A stretch of DNA of 24,000 bases from an uncultured Pseudobdellovibrionaceae bacterium (GTDB lineage: Bacteria; Bdellovibrionota; Bdellovibrionia; Bdellovibrionales; UBA1609), in NCBI GenBank assembly GCA_964636785.1, contig CAZWVK010000009.1:1-24000 (forward strand). The letters are read 5' to 3'. Every line of letters starts with the position of its first letter. Position 1 is the first letter of the stretch. Shown here in pieces: positions 3,555-20,100 of this stretch. The position numbers and the translations under genes were made by a program. The notes beneath the pieces were generated by a model. That model was not told the origin of the DNA. It searched no databases and saw only the letters and a program-made list of their open reading frames with translations.

Positions 3555-5003
3555 CTAATTATGGAATTCCGAATAGGGTAGATCTTTGAAATGTTCAAGA
3601 GCTGGAAGGCGGATGGTGAATGTCGATCCCACCCCGGGCTGACTTTTAACTTCGATCTTACCGCCATGTCTTTCAATGATATGCCTTGATACCGAAAGCC
3701 CAAGTCCCACTCCAGGGATAGTGGCCTTGGTGATTTGAGTGCGCCGAAAAGGCTCAAAAACTTTCTCAAGATCCTGCTCTGAAATACCAATGCCTTCGTC
3801 CTTCACACGCACAATAGCTTCGTTTTTTTCAATCCGAAGATCGACTTGCACTTCGCCACCATTGGGGGAGTATTTGATCGCATTATTAATAAGATTGTTG
3901 ATCACTTGAGTGATCCGGGTCGGATCACATTCAACAGGCACCGGATAGGGTGGAGCATGAAATATAAGAGTGTGGCGAGAAGACACTTGCTGATGAAGCA
4001 CCACGGAATCTCCGATGGGTGTTCGAAGGTCATGAGGGGATTTAACAAGCTCGAGTTGTCCCGACTCAATTCGACTCGCATCCAAAAAATCACCAACCAT
4101 TCGATTCAATTGATCGGACTGTCTGGAAATGATCTCAATCATCTGCTTTCTTTGCTCAGGAGGAAGCTCTTCATGATCAAGAATTTCTGCGGACATTTTA
4201 ATTCCAGACAATGGATTTTTAAGATCGTGAGCCACTCCCGCCAAAAAACGAAGCCTGGCTTTTTTCTGATCGGCCAGCCTCCAGGTGAGGTCATTAAATG
4301 CCTCGGCCGCAACACGAATCTCATCAATCCCCGAAGGTTGAACCACACCATCGCGATTCGCTTCGCGAAAGCCAACAATCCCAGAGCTGAGTTCACGAAT
4401 GGGTTTATAAATCCAGCGTCGAACCATCGTCCATGCATAGGGAAGTAAAAGAGAATAAAGAATCAAAACTCCGAGCGCGACCAAAGATAAAAAATCCACT
4501 CCAGCTTGCGAGCGCTGTATGGCTATGCCGGCGTCATCCAGATTAAGATGCGCTAAACTTGCTGCTTTTTTATGTGCATCTCTCAAATAGACATTAGACT
4601 GCTGATAGGCTTCGGCAGGAGTGAGTCCCTGATGATTCAGATTATCGCGTTGTTTTAGATAAGTCTCGGCGCTCTCTGTGACTTCAATCAAGAGTTCACT
4701 ATGCCGACTTGTGGGCATAAATGATCGAAGCTCCGCAAGAGTTCTTCGAACATTTTCTTCCTCTTGGATCTGGTTTCGGCTGTGTTCAATATCTCCAGTG
4801 AGACCATAGAGGAACCATTCTCTATTGGTGCTCAAGAGATGGATCTGAAGCTCTTCCGAAAGGCGCACCTTTTCAAACATCTGAGCGACATCAGCTGAAA
4901 GCTGGTCGGCGCGAAAAGCCGCAATAAAGGTGACCAGGGCCAAGACGCCTGTGGTAAGAACAAATCCGCCAAGTAGGCGTAAAAAGATACTTTTTAAAGT
5001 CAT
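3555..5003 (-). CDS. Sensor histidine kinase (2 TM segments + HAMP + HisKA + HATPase_c); no response regulator adjacent
   Basis: 482 aa. N-terminal TM helix, a ~150-aa extracytoplasmic helical region, then a second TM helix. H-box FLAGVAHDLKNPLSGI, N-box VINNLINNAIKYSP, G1 VKDEGIGI, G2 GVGLGLSV. Confidence 0.9.
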   Translation of the reverse strand: MTLKSIFLRLLGGFVLTTGVLALVTFIAAFRADQLSADVAQMFEKVRLSEELQIHLLSTNREWFLYGLTGDIEHSRNQIQEEENVRRTLAELRSFMPTSRHSELLIEVTESAETYLKQRDNLNHQGLTPAEAYQQSNVYLRDAHKKAASLAHLNLDDAGIAIQRSQAGVDFLSLVALGVLILYSLLLPYAWTMVRRWIYKPIRELSSGIVGFREANRDGVVQPSGIDEIRVAAEAFNDLTWRLADQKKARLRFLAGVAHDLKNPLSGIKMSAEILDHEELPPEQRKQMIEIISRQSDQLNRMVGDFLDASRIESGQLELVKSPHDLRTPIGDSVVLHQQVSSRHTLIFHAPPYPVPVECDPTRITQVINNLINNAIKYSPNGGEVQVDLRIEKNEAIVRVKDEGIGISEQDLEKVFEPFRRTQITKATIPGVGLGLSVSRHIIERHGGKIEVKSQPGVGSTFTIRLPALEHFKDLPYSEFHN

Positions 5004-5504: not shown

Positions 5505-5855
5505 TCAGAGTCGGGATTCGGAAGAATGCCCTTTTTTCCAATTGGGCGAATCCTTCAGATTCGAATTTACAAGCTTATAAAGATTTGCGCCGAGAGCATC
5601 CGCTTTCGCGAGCAAGTCTTTATCTTTCAAATCCATAAGTTCAAAAATGGTTTGGCACTCTCTAAGTGATCCATATGCCATATGAAAGAAGTTTCGTTTC
5701 TCACGAGCCGAGCCCTTCGCGTTTCCTTCGGAAAGATTCAATGCAATCGAGGTCGAAGCTCTGTTGAGCTGATCTTTGAGATGGCCCTTAAACTTCAGCT
5801 TTGCAGTCAGCTTGCTAAATTCAATGGCCATATCCAATGTCCGGAATGATTTCAT
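5505..5855 (-). CDS. Four-helix-bundle protein of the '23S rRNA intervening-sequence protein' / Avd-like family
   Basis: 116 aa. Family pattern ...LKDQLNRASTSIALNLSEGNAKGSAREKRNFFHMAYGSLRECQTIFELM... AAGGAG lies 6 nt upstream of the ATG. Confidence 0.8.
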   Translation of the reverse strand: MKSFRTLDMAIEFSKLTAKLKFKGHLKDQLNRASTSIALNLSEGNAKGSAREKRNFFHMAYGSLRECQTIFELMDLKDKDLLAKADALGANLYKLVNSNLKDSPNWKKGHSSESRL

Positions 5856-6405: not shown

Positions 6406-7890
6406 ATGCCAGCGAAAATCATCTATCTAAGCAAGAGCCGCCTCAAAAGGGGACTGCAGTGTCCAAAGAGTTTGTACTTTACCGTGTTCAAAAGAGAGCT
6501 GGAGCCGAAGGTCACGAGCGCTACTCAGCTTATTTTTGATGAAGGGAATGAAGTGGGGGAGCTCGCGAGAAAGCAGTTTTCCGATGGAATCCTTATAGAT
6601 AACCCACACTGGGATATCAGCGGTGCTGCAGAAGCGACCCAAAATGCTATTCGCTTAGGTGCTGATGTGATCTTTGAGGCTGCGTTCCTGGTAGATGGTC
6701 TGTTTGCGCGCGCCGATATTCTAAGAAGAGACTCGTCTCGAAATGAATGGGAGATCATAGAAATTAAAAAATCAACCAAAGTAAAAGAGGAGCACATCCA
6801 GGATCTTGCAATTCAAGCCCTGGTTCTTGAGAAAGTGGGATTAAAAGTAAAAAGCTATCACTTGATGCACTTGAATTCGGAATGCATATTTCCCAACTTA
6901 GGCAATCTTTTCTGTATTACCGATGTGACCGAGGGAGTCGGAGCATCTTTGCCAGTGCTTAAAAATAAGATTTCCGAGTTAAAAAGTCTTGTCAAAGAAG
7001 CCCGTGAACCGGAAATTGAAATTGGCTCCCATTGCGATGATCCTAATCCTTGTACGTTTCGTGATCACTGTTGGAAGGACTTCCCGAGGCCAAATGTCTT
7101 CGATCTTCCGGGGGTAGGACCCGTTAAAGGTTGGAAGTTGATCGAAGGCGGCCAAACTCTCATTTCCGATCTCGATCCGGAAGATTTCAAAGGAAAGACG
7201 AGAGTTGCGATAGAAGCTATTCAAAAAAAGAAGAGATGGATTGAGCCAATGCCTATCAAGACATTTGTTAAAAACTGGCAGTGGCCATTGTACTTTCTAG
7301 ATTTCGAAACGCTGGCACCAGCGGTCCCTAGATATGCAGGCTGCCGACCTTATTCTGAAATCCCATTTCAGTTTAGTTGTCATGTGTGGCCAACTCCTAA
7401 AAGTGAAGTAGATCACATTGAATATCTCCATCTTACAAAAGAGGATCCGAGGCTAGCTATCGCTGACGCACTAGTTAAAGGCATAGGAGATACCGGATCT
7501 GTCGTGGCTTATAATATGTCCGTAGAGAAGAATATTTTACTCAAACTTTCAGAACTGTTTCCTAAATACAGAAGTAAGCTGAAATCAATTGCTGAGCGGT
7601 TGGTCGATCCACTGCCTGTTTTTCGAAATCATGTGTATGACCCAAACTTTAACGGGAGTTTCAGCATCAAGGATGTGGCACCAGTCTTGGTGGGCGCCAC
7701 GTATGGATATGGTCAACTAGAAGTATCAGACGGAATGTATGCCCGCGCTATGGCGGAAGCGATTATATGCGGTAAAATTAGTGGCAAGGAATCCGAACAA
7801 TTAAAACAGGCGCTATTAGAATATTGTCGACAAGATACCATAGCAATGGTTGCGCTGACTAAATGGATGCTTGATCTAAAAGCTGCGTGA
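6406..7890 (+). CDS. DUF2779-family two-domain nuclease (N-terminal Cas4/RecB-like PD-(D/E)XK domain with Cys cluster, C-terminal DEDD/RNase H-like exonuclease domain)
   Basis: 494 aa. The N terminus YLSKSRLKRGLQCPKSLYF is typical of DUF2779. D...ExK motif (ARADIL...IIEIKKST), followed by a Q-helix IQDLAIQAL. Cys pattern C19...C-x5-C-x5-C (HCDDPNPCTFRDHCW). The C-terminal half has YFLDFET, VVAYNMSVEKNIL and YCRQDTIAM (Exo I/II/III-like). Confidence 0.8.
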   Translation: MPAKIIYLSKSRLKRGLQCPKSLYFTVFKRELEPKVTSATQLIFDEGNEVGELARKQFSDGILIDNPHWDISGAAEATQNAIRLGADVIFEAAFLVDGLFARADILRRDSSRNEWEIIEIKKSTKVKEEHIQDLAIQALVLEKVGLKVKSYHLMHLNSECIFPNLGNLFCITDVTEGVGASLPVLKNKISELKSLVKEAREPEIEIGSHCDDPNPCTFRDHCWKDFPRPNVFDLPGVGPVKGWKLIEGGQTLISDLDPEDFKGKTRVAIEAIQKKKRWIEPMPIKTFVKNWQWPLYFLDFETLAPAVPRYAGCRPYSEIPFQFSCHVWPTPKSEVDHIEYLHLTKEDPRLAIADALVKGIGDTGSVVAYNMSVEKNILLKLSELFPKYRSKLKSIAERLVDPLPVFRNHVYDPNFNGSFSIKDVAPVLVGATYGYGQLEVSDGMYARAMAEAIICGKISGKESEQLKQALLEYCRQDTIAMVALTKWMLDLKAA

Positions 7891-7986: not shown

Positions 7987-8991
7987 ATGAGCATGAAAAA
8001 ATTAAAAAACCTCCTGGCTGAAGCCACTATCAATAAATTCATTGAGCATATAAAAAGGAAGACAAAATCCGGAATTGAAACCCTTCACGAGAATGGCGAA
8101 AAGGCTTGGTTGGGTAGCGTTGCGGCTATGGGAGACTTTAGCACAGCCTTGAGCCAAACAGATTTCGTATCAAAGTTAAATACCTACTCCTCAGATGTAT
8201 CAAAAGCCATGGATGAGGGTTTCAAAATCGGCAGTGAGCATTTGGAGTCGGGACTAAGTATGACCCCAAATAATCATCGTATTCTGGATGGTGGACACGG
8301 CTTTTTTGAATCCATTTCTAAGGCACAAGAGGTGGGAGAAGCCAATGGCTGGTCTGATCTCGAAACCTTTCAGGTTTGGATCAAGTCCTATTTTACAGAC
8401 TTATCCTCAAATGCCGGAATGCCAGTGTTGGATTCATACACAGATGATGTATACGCCTTTTTGAGAAATATTGGCTTTAGTGACGAGACCGCCCGCGACG
8501 TATTAACGGTGAATGGCCAGGAAGCAATTGAGTGCATACTGGGCGGATCTCTATCTGCAGTAGCTATATTCTTTGCCTGGAAGAAAGACGACAAAGATAA
8601 TTTCTCAAGATCTCTGGGGGCGATGGGAATCGCGAGCGTAGTAAGCCTTAATCCGGTTGTGTTAGCCGTCGTTATAGCAGCTGCGGCTTTGGGGTATACA
8701 ACTCTTGTCTGTCGAAAATCTGCGGGCAAAGGAATGATCGTCAGCTCAGCAGCAATGATCACTAGTGCTTTAATTCCGGGTCCGCTGTTACTCGGAGTAA
8801 TTCCTGCAATTGCAGTCGCCGTTCTAATCAATAAAAAGATGAGTAAAGAGTTCGATCCATCGGCCCACTTGGTTCAGCTTTATAAGAATTTGAGAGATAG
8901 GGAAAAGCGACAGAAGATCCTTGATCACTCAAAACAAATCCTGGAAATCCTGTCCCGTGCCCAAGCGAACCCGGAGTCGAGAGTGGGATAG
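7987..8991 (+). CDS. Hypothetical membrane protein (soluble N-terminal ~185 aa, 3-4 C-terminal TM helices, charged helical tail)
   Basis: 334-aa ORF. Hydrophobic segments are LGGSLSAVAIFFAW, MGIASVVSLNPVVLAVVIAAAALGYTTLV, MIVSSAAMITSALIPGPLLLGVIPAIAVAVLI. I recognise no family motif. No clear SD sequence (start may be ATG 7987 or 7993). Confidence 0.6.
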   Translation: MSMKKLKNLLAEATINKFIEHIKRKTKSGIETLHENGEKAWLGSVAAMGDFSTALSQTDFVSKLNTYSSDVSKAMDEGFKIGSEHLESGLSMTPNNHRILDGGHGFFESISKAQEVGEANGWSDLETFQVWIKSYFTDLSSNAGMPVLDSYTDDVYAFLRNIGFSDETARDVLTVNGQEAIECILGGSLSAVAIFFAWKKDDKDNFSRSLGAMGIASVVSLNPVVLAVVIAAAALGYTTLVCRKSAGKGMIVSSAAMITSALIPGPLLLGVIPAIAVAVLINKKMSKEFDPSAHLVQLYKNLRDREKRQKILDHSKQILEILSRAQANPESRVG

Positions 8992-9081
8992 GCTAGCGTT
9001 TTGCCAAACGCCGTATAACAAATTCATACATTGTCACCGATGCTTGTTTTTTGAGCAAAGCTGTCATACAGCAGCCTGTAA

Positions 9082-9288
9082 ATGAGCAAAACAAAAGCTA
9101 TTAGGCTTACCGATGCCGAGGAACGGCGAATTCAGGAATTCTTGCGCCTCAATCCCTTCTTTGACTTTTCATCTCTGGCTCGAACTGCGATTCTAAAATT
9201 TATAGAAAACCCGGAGCTAATCCTTAGGCCGGTACAAAAATCAAAAAAATCATATCAATCGAGTAGGCAAAAGGAGATATCTTTGTGA
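9082..9288 (+). CDS. Small ribbon-helix-helix (CopG/antitoxin-like) DNA-binding protein
   Basis: 68 aa. KAIRLTDAEERRIQEFL...FSSLARTAILKFI fits the strand-helix-helix pattern of RHH proteins. The stop overlaps the next gene's GTG (GTGA). No obvious SD sequence. Confidence 0.55.
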   Translation: MSKTKAIRLTDAEERRIQEFLRLNPFFDFSSLARTAILKFIENPELILRPVQKSKKSYQSSRQKEISL

Positions 9289-10715
9289 AGAACATTGATA
9301 GTCAGGACAGACTAAACAAAGTCATCCCGTTATTTCGAAACGCTAAGCCAGAGCCGTTTATTGAGAAACTAGCGGTGAGTTCTCCAAAGCCTGGAATAGG
9401 CGCCATCGAACGAGAGATGCGTGAGAAACTCGGTAAGCTAAAGGACTGTCGTTATCCAGATACCTTTGATTGGGGCGTCTATGATCGAATTGCTAAAAGA
9501 TATGGTGAGAATCAGCCTCGGGGCGGTGTGGTTTTTAAGACGACATTCAAGTTAGTCAATCATCATTCAACTTGCAATAAATGCCACCAAGCTTTTGAAA
9601 TCGATAGTTATGGCCGAGGTTGTATTCATAACTGTGTTTACTGTTATGCCAAAGATCAACTGACTACGCACGGGTTCTGGAACCGACCGATGCCGTTTCC
9701 GGTTGATTTGAGTGAAGTCAGAAAAATCATGTATACAGTTTTTGAATCTGATAAGCCTTCAAAGTGGAGAAATATTCTTGCGCGACGGGTGCCACTAAGA
9801 ATTGGCTCCATGAGTGATTCGTTCATGCACATGGACAAAAAGTACGGCGTAACAAAAGAGCTTCTTAAAATCCTAAACTACTACGAATACCCACATATTA
9901 TATTTACGCGATCTGACCTTGTTGCGGATGATGAATATCTGAATATTTTGAACCGTGATCTGGTTTCAGTTCAAATGTCAATGTCTGGAAACAACGAGCA
10001 TCTTCATCGTTTGATCGAGCCAGGTGCGCCCAGCATTCAGCGAAGGCTCACTGCTCTCAAAAAGCTAGCTGAAAATAACTTTTGGACGACAGTAAGAATT
10101 AATCCTATGTTCCCAACCCACCCAGACGGGTACTACACGGATAAAGCTAGTGTAGTCGAACGTTTCGGCAGTCTTGAGAAGGTGCCGACGTTCGACCTCA
10201 TGAATAGTGAGTTTATTGATCAACTGAAAGAAGCCAAAGTACCAAGTTTGCTTGCAGGATTTGTTCGTTTATCCTCAAAAGCGATCAATTCAATGTCCGA
10301 GGTGACGGGCATCGATTTGAGATCTTTTTTCAAACCTGAACACTTGGTGGGGCAGGGTGATAAACATTATTCAGATTCAGAAATTGCATACTATTACTTT
10401 AATTTAAAGAAAGAGACCGCCAAACGGGGTATCCGATTTAATACTTGCTACATAGGCAATGGTCAGAAGGACTTTTATCAGTACCAATCGCTTTGGGATA
10501 ATAAGAAAGACTGCTGCGATGCGGTTGGAAATGTCGGTTCCTTCACTACGACAAGTCAGACGATTCCTTGGGAAGAGCGATTGAAGCATGCGCCCAGTAA
10601 AGAGCATGCATTGAAGTCAAAATCGCAAGAGGAAGAGTACGATGAAAAGTTTGATTTCACGAATTCCATGAGGCGGAGCACTCAAAAAAGCGATTCACCT
10701 GAGGTGCAGGTTTGA
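9285..10715 (+). CDS. Radical SAM protein of the SplB / 'DNA repair photolyase' (COG1533, Rv2578c-like) type
   Basis: 476 aa. CxxxCxxC cluster GCIHNCVYCYAKD (C113/C117/C120, nt 9621-9644). Downstream family pattern RIGSMSDSF...IIFTRSDLVADDEYL...VQMSMS...IEPGAPSIQRRLTALKKLAE...VRINPMFP. GTG start with AAGGAGA 7-8 nt upstream. Confidence 0.85.
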   Translation: MKNIDSQDRLNKVIPLFRNAKPEPFIEKLAVSSPKPGIGAIEREMREKLGKLKDCRYPDTFDWGVYDRIAKRYGENQPRGGVVFKTTFKLVNHHSTCNKCHQAFEIDSYGRGCIHNCVYCYAKDQLTTHGFWNRPMPFPVDLSEVRKIMYTVFESDKPSKWRNILARRVPLRIGSMSDSFMHMDKKYGVTKELLKILNYYEYPHIIFTRSDLVADDEYLNILNRDLVSVQMSMSGNNEHLHRLIEPGAPSIQRRLTALKKLAENNFWTTVRINPMFPTHPDGYYTDKASVVERFGSLEKVPTFDLMNSEFIDQLKEAKVPSLLAGFVRLSSKAINSMSEVTGIDLRSFFKPEHLVGQGDKHYSDSEIAYYYFNLKKETAKRGIRFNTCYIGNGQKDFYQYQSLWDNKKDCCDAVGNVGSFTTTSQTIPWEERLKHAPSKEHALKSKSQEEEYDEKFDFTNSMRRSTQKSDSPEVQV

Positions 10716-11125
10716 AAACCATCCCGGGCATTAATGTGCAGTGGCCATGGAGCGAACTTTTGATCTCAGGAAAAAAAACGGTCGAAACGAGAACGTATCC
10801 ATTGCCAGAAAAGTATATTGGAGTAGAGCTCGCGTTAATTGAAACACCAGGTTCAAAGGGGAAAAAGGAAGCTGGGATCAAAAAGGCGAGAGTAATTGGA
10901 ACAATAACCTTTGGTGAAGCTTTTAAGTATAGAACCGAATCCGAGTGGAAAGGAGATGAGCAGCGACACCTGGTAGACACATCGGACCCACAATTCTCCT
11001 GGAAAAAGAGAAAGCAAAATGTTTGGGGTTGGACGGTAATCAGATTCAAGCGTTTTAAAAGAGCAATTCCCGCGCCCAATAAGCGCGGGATTGTATTTGC
11101 AACCTCTTGTAAAGTTAGTCCCTAA
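10712..11125 (+). CDS. ASCH (PUA-like fold) domain protein
   Basis: 137 aa. N-terminal INVQWPWSELLISGKKTVETRTY matches the ASCH signature (xQPWaxLIxxGxKTxExR). TTG start overlaps the radical-SAM stop (TTGA), with GAGGTG upstream. Confidence 0.7.
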   Translation: MKTIPGINVQWPWSELLISGKKTVETRTYPLPEKYIGVELALIETPGSKGKKEAGIKKARVIGTITFGEAFKYRTESEWKGDEQRHLVDTSDPQFSWKKRKQNVWGWTVIRFKRFKRAIPAPNKRGIVFATSCKVSP

Positions 11126-14100
11126 TTGAAACTCGCTCGCCCATCCATACAACTAAATTTCGATATCCCATCGCCGCGAGAGCAGACTGCATGGTACACC
11201 AGGTCTCCCAGCTTTCTTTAGTCGCCATGATTTCTGGACCATGCACCAAACAGATCACAGTTCCATCGTCCGAGATCGCTATTGGATGAAATGCCTTCTT
11301 TAGATTGTTTAGTGCATTCCCAAGAATCAATGTGCGCGGATCGTCGATTTCATCTAGATCGACGGGTGAAAGTTGATAAAAGATAGTCTGTTTGCTCAGG
11401 CCTAATTCCAGACGTTTTTTGGTTTGATCATCAACTATCGACGGAATAGCGAAGAGTTTCTCTTTCCTTTTAAAAATATCTAGAGGCTCAGCGCTTGAGA
11501 TCATATCTTTTAATATTTCTAAGGGCCCTGTTTGTGAAGGCCAGTGCCCTGGTACCCACATGACTGACCAGCCGCGCTTTGCTAAAAAGTTTCGCTTTTC
11601 TATGTCTGCCAGGAATTTCTCTCGATGATGTTCCCAGCCATCGACGAATAGTTGAAGTTTCCGTCTGCCGCTTTCAATCTGGAAATCCGAGACCGTTACA
11701 AGTCCTTCAGAAGGATCTCGAAATTCCTGTTGAGTTTTATATTGAATTTTAGCCTCTTTAAGCCATTTACTAAAAAGTGTCTCGGCACCGCTTCGTTCGT
11801 CGGTCTGTTGCCCAAGGCCGATGTCGATCGCTTTCCAATTCCCAGTCTTAAGAGCTTCAAACAGGATCGGCTTCCCATCTATAAGAAATACGGATTTGTC
11901 AATATGGGCATGATCCCACTGGTTGTCATAGCTTTTGAGACAGCGATAACAGCCTTTTTCACAACAGCTTTTACTGATTAGCGATGTACACTCGTCAAGG
12001 ATTTGATCCCAGTAGGTTTCGATCATTGGAATAATGCCGCTGCCCCCACGTTCTGTGTCCAGTATGAGAATTTCAAGCGAGCTTACTTGGGGATCTTGTC
12101 CATTGGCAGTAGGTGCCATTATACGACGTTCAGTAATCTCTAAGTGGTTTGCACGCTTATTGAGACGCAAAACTTTCTGGGTGGCTCGTTCAAATGTGGC
12201 TGCAAGTGTCTTGTAGAAAATATTGTGAGCTTCGGTATGGCCATCAGGTAATCCTTGCACCCATTGGTTGTACCGGGCTGAAGAAATTGGAAGACGTAGG
12301 CGTATTCCCGGGCAATCAGTTTGAACCGCAGGGAAGAAGGGGCGCCACTGTGCCCTTGTCGCCGCTGGCGGCGGATTTAGTCTTACACCGAACGATGAAC
12401 TTTCAGATTTTTCACGCCAGAGGGCGGTTTGTGAATTGCCTGAGACTGCAGAGTCTCTTCGGTGTATGATTTGTAGTACCCGAAAGCTGTTTTCTCTACT
12501 CATATGAAAGTGCATTTGTATGCTTTGGTCTGTAGTGAGGGCCTTTGAACTATCATTGTTTGGAGCGCCGATAAGTTTTAGATCAGCTGTGAAATAGTTC
12601 ATCTCTCGGCGGCTTGTAGAATCTGAAATGACATTTCTCTGGGAGCCATGAGCTTCACGTATTTCTATGAGTTCTGGCCTCACACTGTCACCATCTTCTC
12701 CAGCGCGTATTACAGGGCTCTGACATGATGGGCATTCTTCTGAACCTGGAGGTATAAGTTCGGTGCATGTATTGGAACAAACGCCCCAGCCGGTAGTTGT
12801 TAAATTCGCATTTTGGGCGCTGATGTACCTTTCCACTTCATAAATCCAACCGTGACCATATATTTTCTGCTCAGGTGCAAATTCACGTAGTGCTACAGTG
12901 GCGGACCGGTCATATTTTAATAGGTCCATATATTTATTTTCCGAGTTCCCATAATTTACTCTGACACCCCTGAATCTAGTTACCCTTCCAGGAAAATCAA
13001 AATTAGGTAGAAAGCCGCTAGCCGCCATATCACTTATAGGTTGTGGTTTGTCAAAATTGCGGCCAATCCCAAGATATAATTTCGAAAAATATAGCGCCCT
13101 AGAGAGCGCACGCTCAAGACCTTTTCGCTCATCTTCATTCATCCGGAGTCTTTCAAGGCCACTTTTTGAACCCAGAGTTTCAACTTCATTTAAATAAATA
13201 TCGAGCAATGCTAAATACCCATTCAGCTCAGAAGCGAAAGTGTCTGGCCAACTTGTAATGTCAGCCTTTTGGCGGAGTTCTGAGGCTAAGGTATTTACTG
13301 CTTCGGACTTTAACGATGGTTTCCAAAGATGAGTCGAAGTCAGGTTTATAAAGTCATCTATCATTGACTGAATTAAATTTTTTCGCGATTCATAAATTTC
13401 TCGCCAATTCTGAGGTGCGGTGGGAAGTCCGGCGATTTCATCTCCCAATAACGCTTTGGCCTTCTGAAAATGGTTACTTAGATCGACTAACTTGTCCCAC
13501 CTTGAAAGCTCAATCGAAGGGACGCCGTCTATTGGTAACCCCATGGCCTCCAGGATAAGACCATTCAGGTGCCTGGCTATGATAAACGTATTTTCAATTG
13601 GCATACCCGGCGGTAAAATTTCACCGGAGGCCATATCTATCGGATTTTCAAAGAAAGTCATATCGTGGCTACTAAAACCACAATATGTAAATATCATTGC
13701 ACGCTTAGGCCCACGGCCGGCTCGACCCGCACGCTGGGCATAATTGCTTGCGTCAGGGGGAACAGAGCGATGAATTACCGTGGGCAGATCGGGTAAGTCG
13801 ACCCCCATTTCAAGAGTAGGCGTCGCAACAAGTGTATTAATTTGGCCCTTTACAAATTTGTTTACTGCTTCATTTTGATCTGCGGCGCCAATCATTCCAT
13901 TGTGCTCTCTTGCTGATACCAATCGCGCCTCTGACGAAAGTGGTTGATGATAGAGCTTTCTGTAATACTCATGTGGGGGATTTATAACTTGTTTCCAAGT
14001 GTCCCCAGGTTTTTTGCCAGTCATTGCTCCTTCAAAGTCATGTCGAAAAGCTGAAACGCGCCACGCACCCGTATAGGCTGACCGCCATAACTTCGGATTT

Positions 14101-17100
14101 GGCACTATTAGCAGTGATCCGCTGACTTTTAAAACAGGATTGTCTTGTTCAGCGCTTGATAAGAACAGACATTTGTTTAAAGGACTCTTTGTGATGAATT
14201 TCACCCAAGTGTCTTTTTTTGCCCAAAAGGGGAGTTCTGCCTCTAAAGCGCCGAGTTGCATAAGTAGGCGCCCAAGTCCCGAGTTTTTGGATATTTTGTT
14301 TTGATTCTTTGCAGATTGGCCTAAAAGATCTTCGATACTTGGACGAATCTGCGCTGACCATAATCGACTCAGAAACTGGTTAGCAGTGTTGCCATCGATA
14401 TCCCCAAGAGCACCTTTGGTTGCCAATTTCTCAATTAACCAGTATCCAATTAGAAAAAGTGCGCGACCACTAAAACCAAAATCAGGGTGAGTGGCAGCAA
14501 ATTCCTCAAAAGACTCTTCATTAAAATCAGGAAAATCCCACGTAGCGAGTCCGAGGGTCTGTAGACCTCCCTCTCTCACCTGAACCGCAGTCACGTCTAA
14601 AGCGATGACATCTGTTAGAAGCTCCAGGACGAATGTGCCCCGGTCGGAATCGGCTAGCAGGTCGAAATCCTCATCTGTTTCAGTTGTACGGCTTTGTGAA
14701 TCACTAATGGTGTAGTTCTCTAATAGCCATTCCCTCAAGGCACGCTTTCTCGAATCGGGATTGCGGTTTTTGAAGTCTGTCTGGAGAACCTCCCGTGGAA
14801 TTAGGTTTTGAATGGTCTGCTTACGTATCCTAAAAGATTTGGGAAGGCTAGCACTACGATGAACTAATTCGCCTGATTCCACACTCATTAAGAGGCGAAT
14901 TGCAAAATCATACTTGAACGATTCCGGTAGCCGTTCGTCCGTAGCAATGCGTTTTTTCAATAACCACGGTTCTTTGTCATTTGCATCCTGATTTGCTTTC
15001 AAAAAGCTAGCAACGGCTCGACGCAAATTAAGCCTTCTATGACGATCAGTCAAAAATCCCGAAAGAAATGAAGTTTCCTGTCTGTTGTCACAGAAAATTA
15101 AAAGCTTCCGCTCTTTGTTGTCACCTTTAGGTGAGCCGTCATATGAAATTTTTGAAAGGAGACTGGCTGAATGAACGGAAAGATCAATTGATGCACTACT
15201 TCGGTGCGTATTAATTAGCGGTCTTTCGTCAGAGGTTTCCCCACAAGCAGGACAACTATGAAAATCTGAAGCCTCTGCTTTTTCTTTCTTGCCATTGGTA
15301 ACTTTGGTTTTAATCCGGCTGTAGCGCACCAATATCGTGGCATCTGAATTTTTTGATTTGCCATAGGTGGCGATTAGATGTTTTCCAGAGGTAGAAAGCG
15401 TATATTCATGCCGCTCCCAACCAGAGGGTAGATGTTGGCCATTATTTGGAATAGTTTCTGGATCATGTAGTACTGCGGCTTCGATCCCGCCACTAAGTGC
15501 TTCCTCGTCAAATCGCTCTGGTAGGTTGATAATTTTAGACTGTTCGGCACCTTCTCCATCCTGAGCAATCATCAGGCCCGCAAATGCACTGTGCCCGCAC
15601 TTCCGACAAGAAACAAAATTCAGCGCTTTTTTGTCTGAATTAGCCAGCGATTCATCATCAAACAATGTCTTTCTATCCAGTGACCAGTACACTCGCGGTT
15701 GCGCGCGGCCAAATAAGTGATATCGAAGACCTATTGCCGGAAATATTTCATTTTCAAAAGCGTGGCTACAAAGTATTAAGAGTGCTTCTAAAAGATGTGG
15801 ACTTCCACCGACACGGCCAGTAAATCGTGAAATAGCGATTTTTAGTGTAACCATACTTGATTCCTGACCTTGTTCGTCTTTCAACAGAACAGCCAGTAGG
15901 TGAGGCGCTATAGCTTTTGCCCAGGGATAAATTTGTTTGGCACAGGTGAGATAGTCTGAGGTTTCAATTTTGACGAATCGTTTTGCCAGTTTAAATAAAG
16001 ACTCTGGAAACATGGCTGAGAGATCTTCAGCAATGGCCTCAGCCGGGGCGGCTTTACAGGCTTCGAATACGCTCAGATCTGGGTTAACAAGTGCCTCAAA
16101 GCTATCTTTCAATAACCAATTTTCGCCCTCGAATGGACGACCAAAGAGTTTAGTGAACATATCTCGCATATCATGTTCAACTTTTTTCTCATCCTGATCT
16201 GGCCCTTGGCTAAGAGTTGCCGAGGTAGCAATTGGCACAAAACTTCGTCCACGCTCTCCAAGATGAACCTTGAGACGATTTAATAAGCATGCAATTTCCA
16301 AGGCCAACGTCCCGGTATAAGTGTGGGCCTCATCTAAAACTAAGTACTCCAGATTCATATCTTTAAAAAGTCGCTGATCAGATGACCTTAGAAGCATGTA
16401 TTCAAGCATCTTATAGTTCGTTAGTAGAATGTGGGGAATTGTCTCAGGTTTGGCCGGGTCAACGACCAGCGTACTTGGATCAAACAAAAGATTGTCGACT
16501 TCGATATCGGGGCGATCTGCTCGTAAGCGTTCTCGAATTTCTTTAATTTCTCTAATAATTTTTTCTTTGTCGGAAGTGTTAAGATCTTTAAAAGCACCGT
16601 TGTAGATTCCAACACGAATCCCGGTGCCTGCTGCATACTTAATAATTCGATAAAACTGATCGTGAACTAGCGCATTCATCGGATAGATAAATATCGCGCC
16701 AATTCCTTGCTTAGTTGGTCCGTAACCCTTCTTAAGGAGACCGTTGATTACTGGCAAAATAAAACTTTCAGATTTTCCAGAACCCGTTCCTGTTGAAATG
16801 ACTGTGCCTTTACCAGAATTAATTCTTTCCCAGGCATTAACTTGATGTGAGTAAGGTGTTCTTAGTTCTGGTAGCGTCCTTAATGTTTCTTGAAGCAAGG
16901 GGTGAAAGTCACCTAGGTTCGGATCTAGTCTTTGGCGAGTTCGCACCAACTGAAGCACTGGATCTTGAAAAAGTGCACCTTCTTTTTCCATAATTGCACG
17001 AAGTTGTCGGTCTAATTCAAAATTTCCATTCTCAGCAAATGGGAACTTTGAACTTACATAGTCGATGAAGTCGCTTCGTAATTCACGAGAAAGATTAAAG

Positions 17101-17108
17101 GGTTGCAT
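11115..17108 (-). CDS. Giant (1,997-aa) DEAD/DEAH-box helicase fused to a DUF1998 (MrfA-type Zn-binding) domain and a C-terminal DUF559/Vsr-like endonuclease domain; DrmA+DrmB-like / DruE-like / Hhe-like
   Basis: Helicase motifs: PYSHQ, TGTGSGKSE (aa 106-114), YPMNALVHDQ, VLDEAH (aa 257-262), ATSATL, LLIFCDNRQ (aa ~669), VATPTLEMGVDLPDL, QRAGRAGRG (aa ~1125). DUF1998-like region at aa ~1361-1745: FLPNFDFPG, CSNTC...CPSC, GGSGIIP...CCEKGCYRCLKSYDNQWDH. Nuclease motifs at aa 1773-1852. The ATG lies 3 nt after the stop of the upstream methyltransferase. Confidence 0.9.
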   Translation of the reverse strand: MQPFNLSRELRSDFIDYVSSKFPFAENGNFELDRQLRAIMEKEGALFQDPVLQLVRTRQRLDPNLGDFHPLLQETLRTLPELRTPYSHQVNAWERINSGKGTVISTGTGSGKSESFILPVINGLLKKGYGPTKQGIGAIFIYPMNALVHDQFYRIIKYAAGTGIRVGIYNGAFKDLNTSDKEKIIREIKEIRERLRADRPDIEVDNLLFDPSTLVVDPAKPETIPHILLTNYKMLEYMLLRSSDQRLFKDMNLEYLVLDEAHTYTGTLALEIACLLNRLKVHLGERGRSFVPIATSATLSQGPDQDEKKVEHDMRDMFTKLFGRPFEGENWLLKDSFEALVNPDLSVFEACKAAPAEAIAEDLSAMFPESLFKLAKRFVKIETSDYLTCAKQIYPWAKAIAPHLLAVLLKDEQGQESSMVTLKIAISRFTGRVGGSPHLLEALLILCSHAFENEIFPAIGLRYHLFGRAQPRVYWSLDRKTLFDDESLANSDKKALNFVSCRKCGHSAFAGLMIAQDGEGAEQSKIINLPERFDEEALSGGIEAAVLHDPETIPNNGQHLPSGWERHEYTLSTSGKHLIATYGKSKNSDATILVRYSRIKTKVTNGKKEKAEASDFHSCPACGETSDERPLINTHRSSASIDLSVHSASLLSKISYDGSPKGDNKERKLLIFCDNRQETSFLSGFLTDRHRRLNLRRAVASFLKANQDANDKEPWLLKKRIATDERLPESFKYDFAIRLLMSVESGELVHRSASLPKSFRIRKQTIQNLIPREVLQTDFKNRNPDSRKRALREWLLENYTISDSQSRTTETDEDFDLLADSDRGTFVLELLTDVIALDVTAVQVREGGLQTLGLATWDFPDFNEESFEEFAATHPDFGFSGRALFLIGYWLIEKLATKGALGDIDGNTANQFLSRLWSAQIRPSIEDLLGQSAKNQNKISKNSGLGRLLMQLGALEAELPFWAKKDTWVKFITKSPLNKCLFLSSAEQDNPVLKVSGSLLIVPNPKLWRSAYTGAWRVSAFRHDFEGAMTGKKPGDTWKQVINPPHEYYRKLYHQPLSSEARLVSAREHNGMIGAADQNEAVNKFVKGQINTLVATPTLEMGVDLPDLPTVIHRSVPPDASNYAQRAGRAGRGPKRAMIFTYCGFSSHDMTFFENPIDMASGEILPPGMPIENTFIIARHLNGLILEAMGLPIDGVPSIELSRWDKLVDLSNHFQKAKALLGDEIAGLPTAPQNWREIYESRKNLIQSMIDDFINLTSTHLWKPSLKSEAVNTLASELRQKADITSWPDTFASELNGYLALLDIYLNEVETLGSKSGLERLRMNEDERKGLERALSRALYFSKLYLGIGRNFDKPQPISDMAASGFLPNFDFPGRVTRFRGVRVNYGNSENKYMDLLKYDRSATVALREFAPEQKIYGHGWIYEVERYISAQNANLTTTGWGVCSNTCTELIPPGSEECPSCQSPVIRAGEDGDSVRPELIEIREAHGSQRNVISDSTSRREMNYFTADLKLIGAPNNDSSKALTTDQSIQMHFHMSRENSFRVLQIIHRRDSAVSGNSQTALWREKSESSSFGVRLNPPPAATRAQWRPFFPAVQTDCPGIRLRLPISSARYNQWVQGLPDGHTEAHNIFYKTLAATFERATQKVLRLNKRANHLEITERRIMAPTANGQDPQVSSLEILILDTERGGSGIIPMIETYWDQILDECTSLISKSCCEKGCYRCLKSYDNQWDHAHIDKSVFLIDGKPILFEALKTGNWKAIDIGLGQQTDERSGAETLFSKWLKEAKIQYKTQQEFRDPSEGLVTVSDFQIESGRRKLQLFVDGWEHHREKFLADIEKRNFLAKRGWSVMWVPGHWPSQTGPLEILKDMISSAEPLDIFKRKEKLFAIPSIVDDQTKKRLELGLSKQTIFYQLSPVDLDEIDDPRTLILGNALNNLKKAFHPIAISDDGTVICLVHGPEIMATKESWETWCTMQSALAAMGYRNLVVWMGERVSIRD
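11553..11792 (-). other. DUF559/Vsr-like PD-(D/E)XK endonuclease domain within the giant helicase (aa ~1773-1852)
   Basis: SGAETLFSKWLKEAKIQYKTQQEF...VSDFQIESGRRKLQLFVDGWEHHREKFLADIEKRNFLAKRGWSVMWV. This reproduces the DUF559 order S-x-x-E ... Q ... DF ... VDG-x-x-H ... D-x-x-(K/R)-x-x-x-L-x-x-x-GW. Confidence 0.65.
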
Positions 17109-17111
17109 TTG

Positions 17112-20100
17112 TTATGCACTCCTCTTTTTACTACTAGATCTACTTGTGTTCTGAACCTCTGTATTTTGGTTGCTATCATCCTTCAGTTTAAAGATTGGTG
17201 TATGGTCAATTTGTCGTAATGACTTGTCCTTAGAATATTCATCATAAAATTTTATGATCATATCGACGTATTCGGGACTGTTACGCTTTAATGTGTCGAA
17301 TTGATTTTCGAGAATCCAAATCAGGTTTTCTCGGCCCATTTCTGGTTGGTTTATACCATAGTGATGCCAGATCAATGCGTCCACTCTCGCACGATCAGCA
17401 TCTGAAATGGTGGTCTTCTCGATTATTCTAACCGCTTTGACGAGAAACATGCTCTTATAATTTGCGATTGGTAAACAGCTGACCGCTTCTTCTGTCATTC
17501 CATTTCCACAAGTAAGCTTAGCGAGAAAGTCTAATGGCAATGAGCTTAGAATTACAGCTAGGGAGAGCAGATTTTTAGGAACGTCAAGAGCATATGCTTT
17601 GCCATTTATGTAATACCCTTTTGGAAGAATTGACACCATAAATGTTCTTTGATTACCCGATCTGGTTAGACTCCGCCATGCGATTTTTGGACGCTCAATA
17701 TTAATTCCTCTTGTGGATAGATGTTCGCGCTTCGCATAGTATTCTATTGGTGAGTCAGTTGAGGTTAATAAATGATTAATATCCCTACCTCTCAGCATAG
17801 GTATCCAGTTGCCATTTTCTTTTTCTAGCTCTCTGGGTTCAATCTTGTTAGTAAATTCGCAGTATCCCTTTTTGGGTCCAGATGAGTGGTTAATTCCTTG
17901 TCGCACCACGCGTTCGAGTTCGGAAAGATAGGCGACCGGCCCAGATGCATTGTGAATTGCGGCAGCCACAGAGACTTGTGTGTTACTAATTAAAGCGGGA
18001 ATTGCAAGCGTAGCAGCAGAGAACTTTTGCAACTGTTCAAATGAGAGCTCTACAGGGAAATATGTAGCTATTGGATTTCGTGAGTCGATTGCAACTGAAA
18101 TGGTATCTAGGTCATTCGTTTGGACCACATTGTTGACGAAGATAGGATTCGACGTTCCGGCCTCTCTGGCAATCACATTACATGTAAACTCGAAGTAAGA
18201 AGGTATTTCGAATATAGAATGAGTATTCCTAAAGTTTACGCTCTCACGAAGCAGCCGCTCTCGAATTAAAAGACGGCGTAAGTCTTTCGTACCTGAATTT
18301 GAGAATATTGCGTACCGTGTAACTAATAAGCCCAATCTTCCCTCGTGATTTATCTGGCAATAGGAAAGTATTGAGAAAAGCACGGATAAATCAATTTTAC
18401 CTTCAATTTTAGCTTCGATTTTTTTTGTACTTTGCCATAATGTCGTCAGTCCCTTTGCGGATCGGTTTTTAGTGAAAATTTCTACCTCGCAGTTTGGCTC
18501 TATTTTGATAAGGCCCTTTCGTCTTTGGGGTTTCTCTGCAGCTTTCAATGAAAGATATTGTGGATCGTAGATTGGATACACGTCTTTGTCTTGAACCCCA
18601 ACTACACCCCATGGTGGGTTTGATATTATTGCGCTAAAACCAGAATGTTTAGGGCTTGCAAATACTTGTGCAAACTCGATATGCCATTGGTAAAAGCGGT
18701 GTTCTCTTGAAACCTTGAATGCAGCTTTAAGTGATTGAAATGCAGATTTTGAAAGTGTTCTCTTTTTCTTTTTCGAGGTACGCTCCAGGGTATTATTATC
18801 TAAAAGATATTCGGTTAGTTCCTTCAAAATTGATAGAGTTGGAAAGCATTTCATTTCATCCACAGGCCAAAACCATTGAGCACACCACAAATCGCCTAGG
18901 GCTTTTAGACGAGCGAATGCACGTTGGTATCGGACCATTTTCTTATAGCCAGTTGGACCATGTTCGTTAATTAGCACTTCTTTTCGTGCGGCTTCGAGTC
19001 TCGTATCAATTTCAATGCCTTCTGCCTCAATTAGCACATCATCGAGTTCGGGAATCCAGGCAAGGCGGTCTCTATGTCTCAGCTCTAAGGAGTCTACAAT
19101 CTCGCCTCTTTTTTGAATTTTCTCAAATTCAGTGACGGCCTTTCGTGCGAGTTGGAGCATCTTGCTCAATTCAATTTGCATCTTAATTGCCCAGTCGGCC
19201 CAGTTCTCATCACCGAATGTTTGGCGCTCATTTCTGAGTTTTGATTTTAATTCGGAGATTTGTTCTTTGATATCGTTGGAGGTGGCTTTTCTGCGGAATG
19301 CTTTTTCTTTCACATCCCAGGCCTCAAAGATCTTTTTGTCAATATCTAGTGCTTCCGTGAAGATATTAAAAATAGATGGAAACTCTGTATGTCCATCCCA
19401 GCTGGTTTTTGATTGGTTAAGATAGTCAGCATAGATGAGCGAGTTTCCTGATTTTAAACGATGATGTAAAAAGGGGAGAGGTTGACCTTTTACTAATGCT
19501 TCGAGATAGAGCGACGTTCTACACAGCTCAAGACTGAGTGGATTCAAGTCGACTCCGAAGAGGCAGTTTTCAAGGATTTGTCTTTTACATTCCTGAAGGT
19601 CGTCGAAAGTGGTATCGCGACCTCGAAGTGTAATATCTTTCTCTCGAACCTTTGCTTTTAATAGCTCTTGACCAAGGTAGCGTAGAGTTGCGATCAAGAA
19701 CCCGCCAGAGCCTACTGCGGGTTCAACGATTCGCAGGTTTAAAATATCTTTGGCTGATTTGCCTTCAACAAGTGGCTTAAGGGTTCGTTTGACTAAAAAT
19801 TCTGCTAGCTTTGGGGGCGTATAAAAACTTGCGGTCTGGCGTTTTTGGCCACCAAGTGGTGCTACGATAAAGGTCCCAGTAGTCGGATTAAATCCGGGTC
19901 TCTCTTGTGAAATATAAGTTTCAAGTCTTCCGACTGCGGCACCTCGTTTACGTTTTTTTCGTGTCGTTCGTAAACCAGACATTTCCGTTGATTCAAACTC
20001 GGTCATTTCAAGTGCATCGGCCAATTTTCTCGAAACGAGCCCAACTCCGCCTCCATGGGCCGGTACCCATAGAGACTCTTCACGAACTATAACGGGCTTT

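Follow-up and report, generated by a model that had tools for sequence, protein, structure and literature searches.

The DNA analysed here, referred to throughout as the window, is a stretch of 24,000 nucleotides from an uncultured Pseudobdellovibrionaceae bacterium (assembly GCA_964636785.1, contig CAZWVK010000009.1, positions 1 to 24,000). Its subject is a plus-strand locus in which a small ribbon-helix-helix (RHH)-like gene, a gene encoding a radical S-adenosylmethionine (rSAM) protein that resembles spore photoproduct lyase (SPL), and a gene encoding an ASCH protein follow one another with overlapping ends. A first-pass annotation, made by a model from the sequence alone, had described these genes as a candidate module for nucleic-acid modification or sensing that abuts a defence operon. 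As detailed below, the rSAM and ASCH genes form a conserved pair associated with restriction genes of predicted N6-adenine type, and we tentatively propose that the pair is an accessory of such restriction systems.

The three-gene locus and its conserved core

The locus is composed of the following features:

9082-9288, plus strand: RHH-like open reading frame (ORF), 68 aa, ATG start
9271-9276, plus strand: Shine-Dalgarno-like AAGGAG, within the RHH gene, 8 nt ahead of the rSAM GTG
9285-10715, plus strand: rSAM ORF, 476 aa, GTG start
10700-10705, plus strand: Shine-Dalgarno-like GAGGTG, 6 nt ahead of the ASCH TTG
10712-11125, plus strand: ASCH ORF, 137 aa, TTG start

The stop codon of the RHH gene overlaps the start of the rSAM gene in the tetranucleotide GTGA at 9285-9288, and the rSAM stop overlaps the ASCH start in TTGA at 10712-10715; the three overlapping plus-strand genes of the first-pass annotation, together with both junctions, were thus read in the sequence as it had described them. 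The location of AAGGAG inside the RHH gene points to translational coupling of RHH and rSAM. At its other end, the ASCH gene overlaps a minus-strand helicase ORF (11115-17108) by 11 nt in convergent orientation, and the abutting defence operon, composed of genes for an SNF2 helicase, an N6-methyltransferase and a giant helicase, also lies where it had been placed.

Relatives of the locus were sought across 185,579 species, each represented by a single genome; the scan yielded 88 matching stretches, from which 80 loci were fetched, and with the window these make up the 81 loci considered below. Their ORFs were called mechanically and searched with the window proteins, and six contigs with independent gene calls agreed with the mechanical ones. 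The rSAM and ASCH genes were adjacent and on the same strand in 74 of the 81 loci, the seven others all being contig ends or carrying truncated or fragmented rSAM genes; the pair was also present in all six of the independently gene-called contigs and in 8 further metagenome contigs. Among the 74, short overlaps between the rSAM stop and the ASCH start recur, of 4 nt (28 loci), 8 nt (11 loci) and 1 nt (4 loci), and in three Oligoflexus loci the order was inverted (ASCH, then rSAM) with adjacency kept. This recurrence of gene order and short overlaps in related loci indicates that the arrangement is not due to chance; rSAM and ASCH make up a translationally coupled unit, and the two proteins probably form a complex. 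A single contig in ENA encodes a 588-aa rSAM-ASCH fusion (P0037); this could be a genuine Rosetta-stone fusion or, as only one contig carries it, an artefact of a frameshift across the 4-nt gene overlap.

An RHH homologue was found immediately 5' of the rSAM gene in 48 of the 81 loci, and in about 25 loci having sufficient flank the RHH gene was missing without replacement. Because of these absences, the conserved unit is taken to be the rSAM-ASCH pair with an optional regulator. In the neighbourhood census that the first-pass annotation had called for, the trio that it had described thus stood in one part, namely the co-organisation of rSAM and ASCH with defence genes nearby, but not in the other, as about a third of the loci lack the RHH gene. 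The 68-aa protein itself matched DUF6290 only weakly (E 0.016, 15.8 bits against a cutoff of 27), as it did RelB_antitoxin (16.4 bits against a cutoff of 50) and Tn5252_Orf10, and DUF6290 was matched by 11 of its 48 homologues. Their alignment displays a conserved N-terminal strand (TRAVRFS) followed by two helices, a beta-alpha-alpha pattern. The protein, which the module can lack, probably regulates its own transcription. A promoter scan upstream of the RHH gene found none. Two pairs of direct repeats, TGAGCAAA (9052, 9083) and TCATACA (9024, 9064), lie within positions 8960-9100, in the stretch that leads up to and spans the RHH start codon. They are too short to interpret, and may represent operator half-sites or have arisen by chance.

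The radical-SAM and ASCH proteins

The rSAM protein scored above threshold against Pfam Radical_SAM (PF04055; E 1.9e-9, 38.3 bits against a cutoff of 29.5), and its cluster motif, C113-x3-C117-x2-C120 (nt 9621-9644), is invariant in 84 homologues. When its AlphaFold2 (AF2) model (predicted local distance difference test, pLDDT, 88.7) was compared with solved structures by Foldseek, the closest fold was that of SPL (4fhg/4fhc; E 4e-9, 14-15% identity), and the six best matches in the PDB were all SPL (E 4e-9 to 1e-8; template-modelling (TM) scores of 0.40-0.42 by query and 0.54-0.56 by target). Judged by this model, the protein has the SPL-like three-dimensional fold, which agrees with its initial description as an SPL/COG1533-like radical-SAM enzyme. 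It scored below the cutoff for Pfam SPL (PF20903; 17.4 bits, E 2e-3, cutoff 27), far under that for the NCBIfam PA0069 family (NF033668; E 6e-23, 81.3 bits, cutoff 360) and under that for the Rv2578c family (NF038135; 60.6 bits, cutoff 430), and in a profile search of PDB sequences it matched SPL at E 0.005 over 70 residues only. The top matches in that search, designed armadillo repeats, were rejected as spurious, since they rest on a short SGNNE..L..IE.GA motif. More than 851 homologues of the protein were gathered, and only 89 among 1.84 billion cluster representatives reached E<=1e-30; within the COG1533 'DNA repair photolyase' group, the protein belongs to a small subfamily of its own.

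The radical-SAM core with its CxxxCxxC motif is common to the window protein, SPL/SplB (4FHC) and COG1533. To this core the window protein adds a conserved N-terminal segment, a C-terminal domain of about 150 aa and five invariant cysteines, C97 and C100 (nt 9573-9584), C388 (10446-10448) and C410/C411 (10512-10517). The five are also kept in sister proteins that are 31-39% identical to one another, and their invariance suggests a second metal or Fe-S site. With respect to the hydrogen donor of SPL, Cys140/141, and its Tyr relay, no invariant Cys was found between C120 and C388; Y119 and Y121 flank C120, and such a Y-C-Y arrangement around the third cluster Cys is one that we take to be a feature of SPL. 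The family is basic, with a median isoelectric point (pI) of 8.7. A viral entry of BFVD, A0A7S5RCB4 (469 aa), fits the rSAM model better than any PDB entry (E 2.6e-12; root-mean-square deviation 3.1 Å over 308 columns).

The 137-aa protein fell below the Pfam ASCH cutoff (PF04266; 15.3 bits, E 0.034, cutoff 21.2), and 38 of 87 members of its family matched this profile at E<=0.05, the best at 3.2e-5. Its AF2 model (pLDDT 96) was matched by Foldseek to CXorf40A/EOLA1 (6kir; E 8e-7, TM 0.72), with TTHA0113 (2dp9), ZmASCH and the ASCH domain of TRIP4 as further fold matches; 6kir, 2dp9, 5guq and 8yew, among others, had a probability of 1.0. As modelled, the protein adopts the PUA-like beta-barrel of ASCH structures. 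It also carries the ASCH octapeptide GxKxxExR, in its 'GKER' type, as G20-K21-K22-T23-V24-E25-T26-R27 (nt 10769-10792), in which K22, E25 and R27 are invariant across the 87 family sequences. Membership in the ASCH family, as proposed at first, is thus assigned from the predicted fold and the motif, together with the relatives that match Pfam. The protein is strongly basic, with a pI of 10.1 for the window member and a median of 9.8 for the family.

Among characterised relatives, the GKER ASCH amidohydrolases (TthASCH/TTHA0113 and EOLA1) and YqfB, which is of the GKTR type, have the same fold (TM 0.66-0.72), and GxKxxExR with its invariant Lys and Glu is likewise found. The window protein is not of the YqfB type: it has Glu where YqfB has Thr, and YqfB structures were weak fold matches (E 0.16-0.3). 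It differs from the GKER enzymes in its identity of only 15-17% to them, in being very basic, and in the setting of its gene, which is coupled to a radical-SAM gene and lies beside DNA methyltransferase genes. GKER ASCH proteins (TthASCH, EOLA1) deacetylate N4-acetylcytidine, with Lys and Glu both essential (preprint 10.64898/2026.02.27.708502). ASCH domains have also been described in fusions or operons with N6-adenine methyltransferases and were predicted to be readers of N6-methyladenine (m6A) (PMC4738411).

Methyltransferase neighbours and the role of the pair

The sharpest association of the pair, and a very tight one, is with amino-methyltransferase (MTase) genes. These were found by iterated searches seeded with three MTase catalytic regions, and the calls were confirmed by Pfam, with Eco57I/N6_Mtase/MmeI, Type ISP and N6_N4_Mtase among the matches. 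Such a gene is located immediately beside the pair in 44 loci and at most four genes away in 58 of the 81. Of the 23 loci with no MTase call, the contig ends within about 2.3 kb in 12, a giant helicase takes up the fetched flank in 4, remnants or weak candidates are present in 3, and the last 4 show none; beyond the giant helicase, an MTase does follow in the window, L165 and L168. At least 10 unrelated clusters are represented among the neighbour MTases, which belong to six or more restriction architectures:

Type IIG (cluster c3), with a conserved PD..K nuclease motif
Type ISP
Type III, Mod and Res
MTase-Mrr fusions (N6_N4_Mtase)
MTase with McrB and McrC
SNF2 helicase, MTase and helicase

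Motif IV has the form NPPY, NPPW, NPPF or DPPF in 51 of the 52 neighbour MTases having a recognisable motif. Under the standard classification of amino-methyltransferases these forms are of the N6-adenine type, and the neighbours are for this reason predicted to be N6-adenine MTases. The restriction genes point towards the pair in the window and L165 but run in its direction in L166, L167 and L170, and the SNF2-MTase-helicase trio by itself occurs both ways (convergent in the first two, co-directional in L166); the link to the MTase thus survives inversion. The tie to a DISARM-like operon drawn in the first-pass annotation therefore stands as a link to restriction and defence, but it is not specific to that operon.

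As a control, loci of generic, short COG1533 rSAM genes were inspected. These came from a metagenome scan aimed at a sister subfamily of about 40% identity, the rest of its yield being mostly of the same family. An MTase lay within about 7 kb in 6 of the 69 control loci, and an ASCH gene in 0-1 of 69; in comparison with generic COG1533 loci, the window-type rSAM has an obligate ASCH partner and a restriction or defence neighbourhood. In one high-GC metagenome contig (L095, 452-7990), a sister rSAM gene (5e-90 to the sister profile) comes directly after those of a DPPY methyltransferase and an SNF2/PLD helicase, and ASCH is missing. This arrangement suggests that the link between rSAM and restriction predates the pairing with ASCH or can do without it.

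The loci are nearly all from metagenome-assembled genomes of Bdellovibrionota, a taxonomy that may include mis-binned contigs, and they are patchily distributed: the pair was found in Bdellovibrionales, Pseudobdellovibrionaceae, Bacteriovoracia, Halobacteriovoraceae, Oligoflexales and Silvanigrellaceae, and from the 88 hits in 185,579 species genomes, the denominator for the phylum being uncounted, most Bdellovibrionota would appear to lack it. Several genomes carry two divergent copies (49-62% identity). Genomes of Oligoflexales have 2-4 copies (L042, L048, L050 and L075 in OZ244057.1; L033 and L043 in OZ245333.1; L044 and L046 in JAPPIL), of which the intact ones are 90-95% identical in protein and 78-91% in DNA; their DNA homology is limited to the pair of about 1.8 kb, and the flanks are unrelated. 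A transposon origin of these copies was rejected, as homology ends with the 1.8-kb pair and terminal repeats are not shared. The L075 copy is frameshifted, and several of the MTase-Mrr genes beside the Oligoflexales copies are decayed.

Both flanks of the pair vary, and defence genes are found there in most loci. Near several loci there are also genes for integrases, insertion sequence (IS) transposases, a serine recombinase, a primase-polymerase and type IV secretion systems (T4SS). In L169 (8796-19275) a block of RHH, rSAM, ASCH and MTase genes has IS transposases and genes of a conjugative T4SS (CagX, TrbI, TraG) as neighbours, and in L168 (1-2462) and L170 (17334-17693) such a block lies beside integrases; the gene content of these three settings resembles that of an integrative and conjugative element or an island. 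The scan of IMG/VR returned no relatives, nothing beyond remote and partial matches to the rSAM (29-31% identity) came from GenBank phages and PLSDB plasmids, and a phage or plasmid origin was accordingly rejected. The base composition of the window displays no signal of horizontal transfer, with a flat GC content of 0.40-0.48. The accessory setting suspected from the window alone is borne out by the patchy distribution, the 2-4 copies per genome and the defence or mobile flanks; neither a core-genome context nor orthology to a characterised repair enzyme, either of which would have spoken against the first-pass hypothesis, was found.

Neither the RHH, the rSAM nor the ASCH protein had a match in PADLOC-DB v2.0.0 at E<=0.01, and no description of the rSAM-ASCH pair was found in a full-text literature search; in the sources searched, the module is as undescribed as the first-pass annotation had supposed. 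The closest concept is that of PUA-superfamily readers attached to restriction systems, in which a modified-base-binding protein is likewise tied to restriction-modification (RM) genes: EVE-HNH and other modification-dependent endonucleases, fusions or operons of ASCH with N6-adenine MTases, and (PIN)-GNAT-EVE and ASCH operons beside Type I RM genes (PMC7641849, PMC4738411). The known partners of such readers are a nuclease, a GNAT or an MTase, whereas here the partner is a radical-SAM enzyme, a pairing absent from both of these papers and from PADLOC. Vsr and Dcm offer a resemblance in concept only, that of a DNA-acting accessory enzyme linked to a restriction-associated MTase; their fold, chemistry and type of methylation (5mC) are unrelated.

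From the gene anatomy, folds, motif conservation, pairing and genomic association, all of them shown here, we infer a complex, a substrate, a chemistry and a phenotype. On the reading that we favour as the most economical, with rather less than even confidence, the pair would assist adenine-methylation-based restriction as an accessory module which reads or processes modified bases; we propose this in place of a housekeeping repair enzyme, which we disfavour. Of the three options left by the first-pass annotation (an independent defence module, a DNA hypermodification or repair function, and an accessory of the neighbouring system) the last is preferred because the link to N6-adenine MTases spans many restriction types. 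In the proposed scheme, the basic ASCH protein would flip out and bind a base modified at an exocyclic nitrogen, in DNA or in a DNA-derived nucleotide, the likely target being N6-methyladenine or an N-acyl or N-formyl derivative of it; its Lys/Glu dyad may, in addition, hydrolyse an amide-type intermediate. The 5'-deoxyadenosyl radical of the rSAM enzyme, possibly aided by a second metal or Fe-S site formed by the five extra cysteines, would abstract a hydrogen atom from the bound base, which would thereby be removed or converted. The net effect would be that the methylation mark needed by the neighbouring restriction enzyme is edited or interrogated, for example by stripping protective methylation from invading DNA or by elaborating the self mark; removal, elaboration and sensing of the mark are all conceivable outcomes.

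A narrower version, which we consider unlikely, is that the pair is a radical-SAM editor of DNA adenine methylation, i.e. an oxygen-independent demethylase or a hypermodifying enzyme acting with restriction systems. Here ASCH would flip out N6-methyladenine, the SPL-like enzyme would take a hydrogen from the N-methyl group or the base, and ASCH would then hydrolyse an N-formyl or acyl intermediate; restriction systems would carry the pair either as a means of removing protective methylation from the DNA of escaper phages or from foreign DNA, or for improving the self mark. The demethylase and the hypermodifying enzyme would each be an enzymatic activity not described before and would extend the biology of restriction-modification.

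No immune strategy is more widespread in bacteria than restriction-modification, and its main weakness is that phage DNA which has once escaped becomes methylated and is then immune. If the favoured reading is true, a helper that reads or rewrites the methyl mark would add a further layer to this defence, and a concrete, testable biological role would be gained for the ASCH family and for COG1533, which is large and obscure in function. The module could yield a new nucleic-acid-modifying radical enzyme, and, as the link is specific (a two-gene unit, N6-adenine MTases, at least six architectures), heterologous expression of three or four genes would be enough to test it. In predatory bacteria the pair is found almost without exception beside restriction systems that methylate DNA, which hints at a helper role new to bacterial immunity.

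Several observations weigh against the accessory reading. The restriction genes and the pair mostly converge, which makes the pair a transcription unit of its own. At least four loci (L050, L055, L070 and L074, the rSAM gene of the last being itself fragmented) have no recognisable MTase in the flank, and intact Oligoflexales pairs adjoin decayed MTase remnants; since the MTase is absent or decayed in some loci, the pair is not strictly dependent on an intact neighbour. One MTase family (c3) is common to 34 loci, which are phylogenetically non-independent, and RM genes are the commonest residents of defence islands, so that part of the MTase association could reflect shared ancestry or hitch-hiking in islands. 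In other bacteria, the restriction enzymes concerned manage with no helper of this kind. The substrate of the ASCH enzymes characterised so far is N4-acetylcytidine, in RNA or as the nucleoside, and not m6A in DNA, and the likeness of the rSAM protein to SPL is at the level of fold only (14-15% identity, with Pfam SPL below threshold). The substrate and chemistry, finally, are proposals.

One possible alternative is that the pair is an autonomous defence system (acting, for example, by abortive infection or by production or destruction of a nucleotide) which is merely co-localised with restriction-modification in islands, with rSAM as effector, ASCH as sensor or helper and RHH as repressor. 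The pair having its own regulator, usually forming a separate, convergent transcription unit and staying intact where the neighbouring MTases are decayed or absent would all agree with this; it is typical of defence genes to occur as two divergent copies in one genome, as seen here (49-62% identity), and other rSAM-based defence systems exist, namely viperins and Ophion, although the partners of Ophion differ from those of the pair (10.1101/2025.09.30.679545). We regard this explanation as fairly unlikely. We would give a lower chance to a sensor-effector that responds to danger signals from the methylome, in which m6A is placed in host DNA by the neighbouring MTase, degradation of the chromosome induced by phage frees m6-dAMP or m6A oligonucleotides, ASCH binds them and the rSAM effector is activated. 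This would explain why any type of N6-adenine MTase suffices and why the residues of the ASCH pocket are invariant across MTase classes, and sensing of Dam-derived m6-dAMP by a PUA fold has been reported for PUA-Cal-HAD (PMC12871103). The invariant Lys/Glu dyad, however, is of a catalytic type and suggests hydrolysis beyond binding, both proteins are very basic, as suits the binding of a polymer, and an SPL-like enzyme offers no evident effector chemistry; the idea is drawn purely by analogy.

An additional scenario is a DNA-repair module, in which an SPL-like reversal of lesions is either lineage-specific or linked to the MTase in the manner of Vsr and Dcm, dealing with damage at or from methylated or mis-alkylated bases. 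The Vsr-Dcm precedent is in its favour, as is the best fold match, a DNA repair lyase, and the wider SplB/COG1533 family has been linked to DNA repair and SOS (PMC3765255, PMC8565304). The rSAM protein is nonetheless not an orthologue of SPL, PA0069 or Rv2578c, whose cutoffs lie far above its scores; it belongs to a small, distinct subfamily (the 89 cluster representatives mentioned above), and its patchy, multi-copy occurrence in mobile or defence contexts is unlike that of a core repair locus. We also know of no m6A-derived lesion that needs radical chemistry, and find repair improbable; a core or housekeeping repair gene in particular was rejected on the basis of distribution, the 2-4 copies and the variable defence or mobile flanks. 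It is more improbable again that there is no functional link and that the pair is a hotspot-edge gene or mobile cargo, whose real task is in RNA or nucleoside metabolism, for example salvage of prey nucleosides in the manner of YqfB and EOLA1. The use of N4-acetylcytidine nucleosides or tRNA by characterised ASCH enzymes would fit such a role, as would the near confinement of the family to predatory Bdellovibrionota and a histidine-kinase cluster (c7) flanking 11 loci. It is opposed by the variation of both flanks, with defence genes in most loci, by the several copies per genome with non-homologous flanks, by the apparent absence of the pair from most of the phylum (with the reservation made above for the uncounted denominator), and by an SPL-like rSAM having no obvious role in nucleoside salvage. 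A type II toxin-antitoxin pair, with RHH as antitoxin and rSAM or ASCH as toxin, might be suspected from the overlapping first gene and its weak RelB/DUF6290 similarity; a 476-aa Fe-S enzyme with a second enzyme is unlike known toxins, and about a third of the loci lack RHH with rSAM and ASCH intact. This reading, scarcely credible, was rejected, as RHH is dispensable.

The neighbouring operon and other flanking genes

The other features of the window that flank the locus are:

3555-5003: histidine kinase gene
5505-5855, minus strand: gene for a four-helix bundle of the 23S rRNA-intervening-sequence type (PF05635)
6406-7890, plus strand: DUF2779 protein with a Cas4/RecB-like nuclease N-terminus (Pfam DUF2779 8.8e-40, Cas_Cas4 1.1e-5)
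7987-8991, plus strand: 334-aa ORF between the DUF2779 and RHH genes
11068-11090, no strand assigned: GC-rich perfect hairpin TCCCGCGC...GCGCGGGA, within the 3' end of the ASCH gene (consensus scan)
11115-17108, minus strand: helicase, 1997 aa, DEAD/Helicase_C with MrfA Zn-binding region (MZB/DUF1998), last gene of the operon
17112-21527, minus strand: DNA methyltransferase, 1471 aa, Eco57I/N6_Mtase type, motif IV NPPW at residue 970
21536-23962, minus strand: SNF2 helicase, 808 aa, SNF2-rel_dom/Helicase_C, first gene of the operon within the window

The hairpin lies just beyond the stop of the convergent helicase gene and is a possible terminator of the minus-strand operon, embedded in the ASCH gene. 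In PADLOC, the 1997-aa helicase matched DruE (2.9e-92) far better than DrmA (2.8e-9), the 1471-aa methyltransferase matched DrmMI (4.5e-77), and the 808-aa SNF2 helicase matched DrmD (4.9e-92), aligned only from about profile position 119. The methyltransferase is the predicted N6-adenine methylation partner of the pair. The operon thus resembles DISARM class 1 and Druantia in its DrmD-like SNF2 helicase, DrmMI-like MTase and giant DUF1998/MZB helicase, but differs from DISARM class 1 in that no DrmB or DrmC (PLD) gene is present within the window and the helicase scores as DruE over DrmA; by its gene content, 'DISARM-like' would seem a fair label and canonical DISARM not. It may run past position 24000, with further genes beyond the window. 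The rSAM-ASCH pair is not a described component of DISARM or Druantia, and it also accompanies unrelated restriction types.

Flanking ORFs were clustered across the loci and the recurrent clusters annotated. The most frequent neighbours are:

Type IIG nuclease-methylase of about 1100 aa (c3), often with a small cold-shock-domain (CSD) protein: 34 loci
DUF2779/Cas4-like nuclease: 26 loci
N6_N4_Mtase-Mrr fusions (c8): 8 loci
Helicase of about 2000 aa, as in the window (c12): 5 loci
McrB/McrC pairs, SNF2 helicases, PDC-S11 and PDC-S14: recurrent

In L001-L003 and L077 the gene after the pair is the c12 helicase, and in L165, L166 and L168 a related giant helicase takes this place. CSD genes lie directly 5' of the Type IIG c3 gene (in L012 at 13017-13253; clusters c5/c17 in at least 19 loci), and together the two form a recurrent operon following the pair. 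A DUF2779 homologue is present within 8 kb of the pair, on either strand, in 26 of the 81 loci, and is therefore a recurrent but non-obligate companion; in PADLOC the DUF2779 protein had nothing but weak Cas4 matches, and its gene could itself be a defence-island gene that has yet to be described. The 334-aa ORF had no match in Pfam, NCBIfam or PADLOC, and none of the 80 related loci encodes a homologue; the C-terminal half of the product appears hydrophobic. The PF05635 gene marks the left edge of the accessory stretch and adjoins the histidine kinase gene, whose cluster is the c7 mentioned above.

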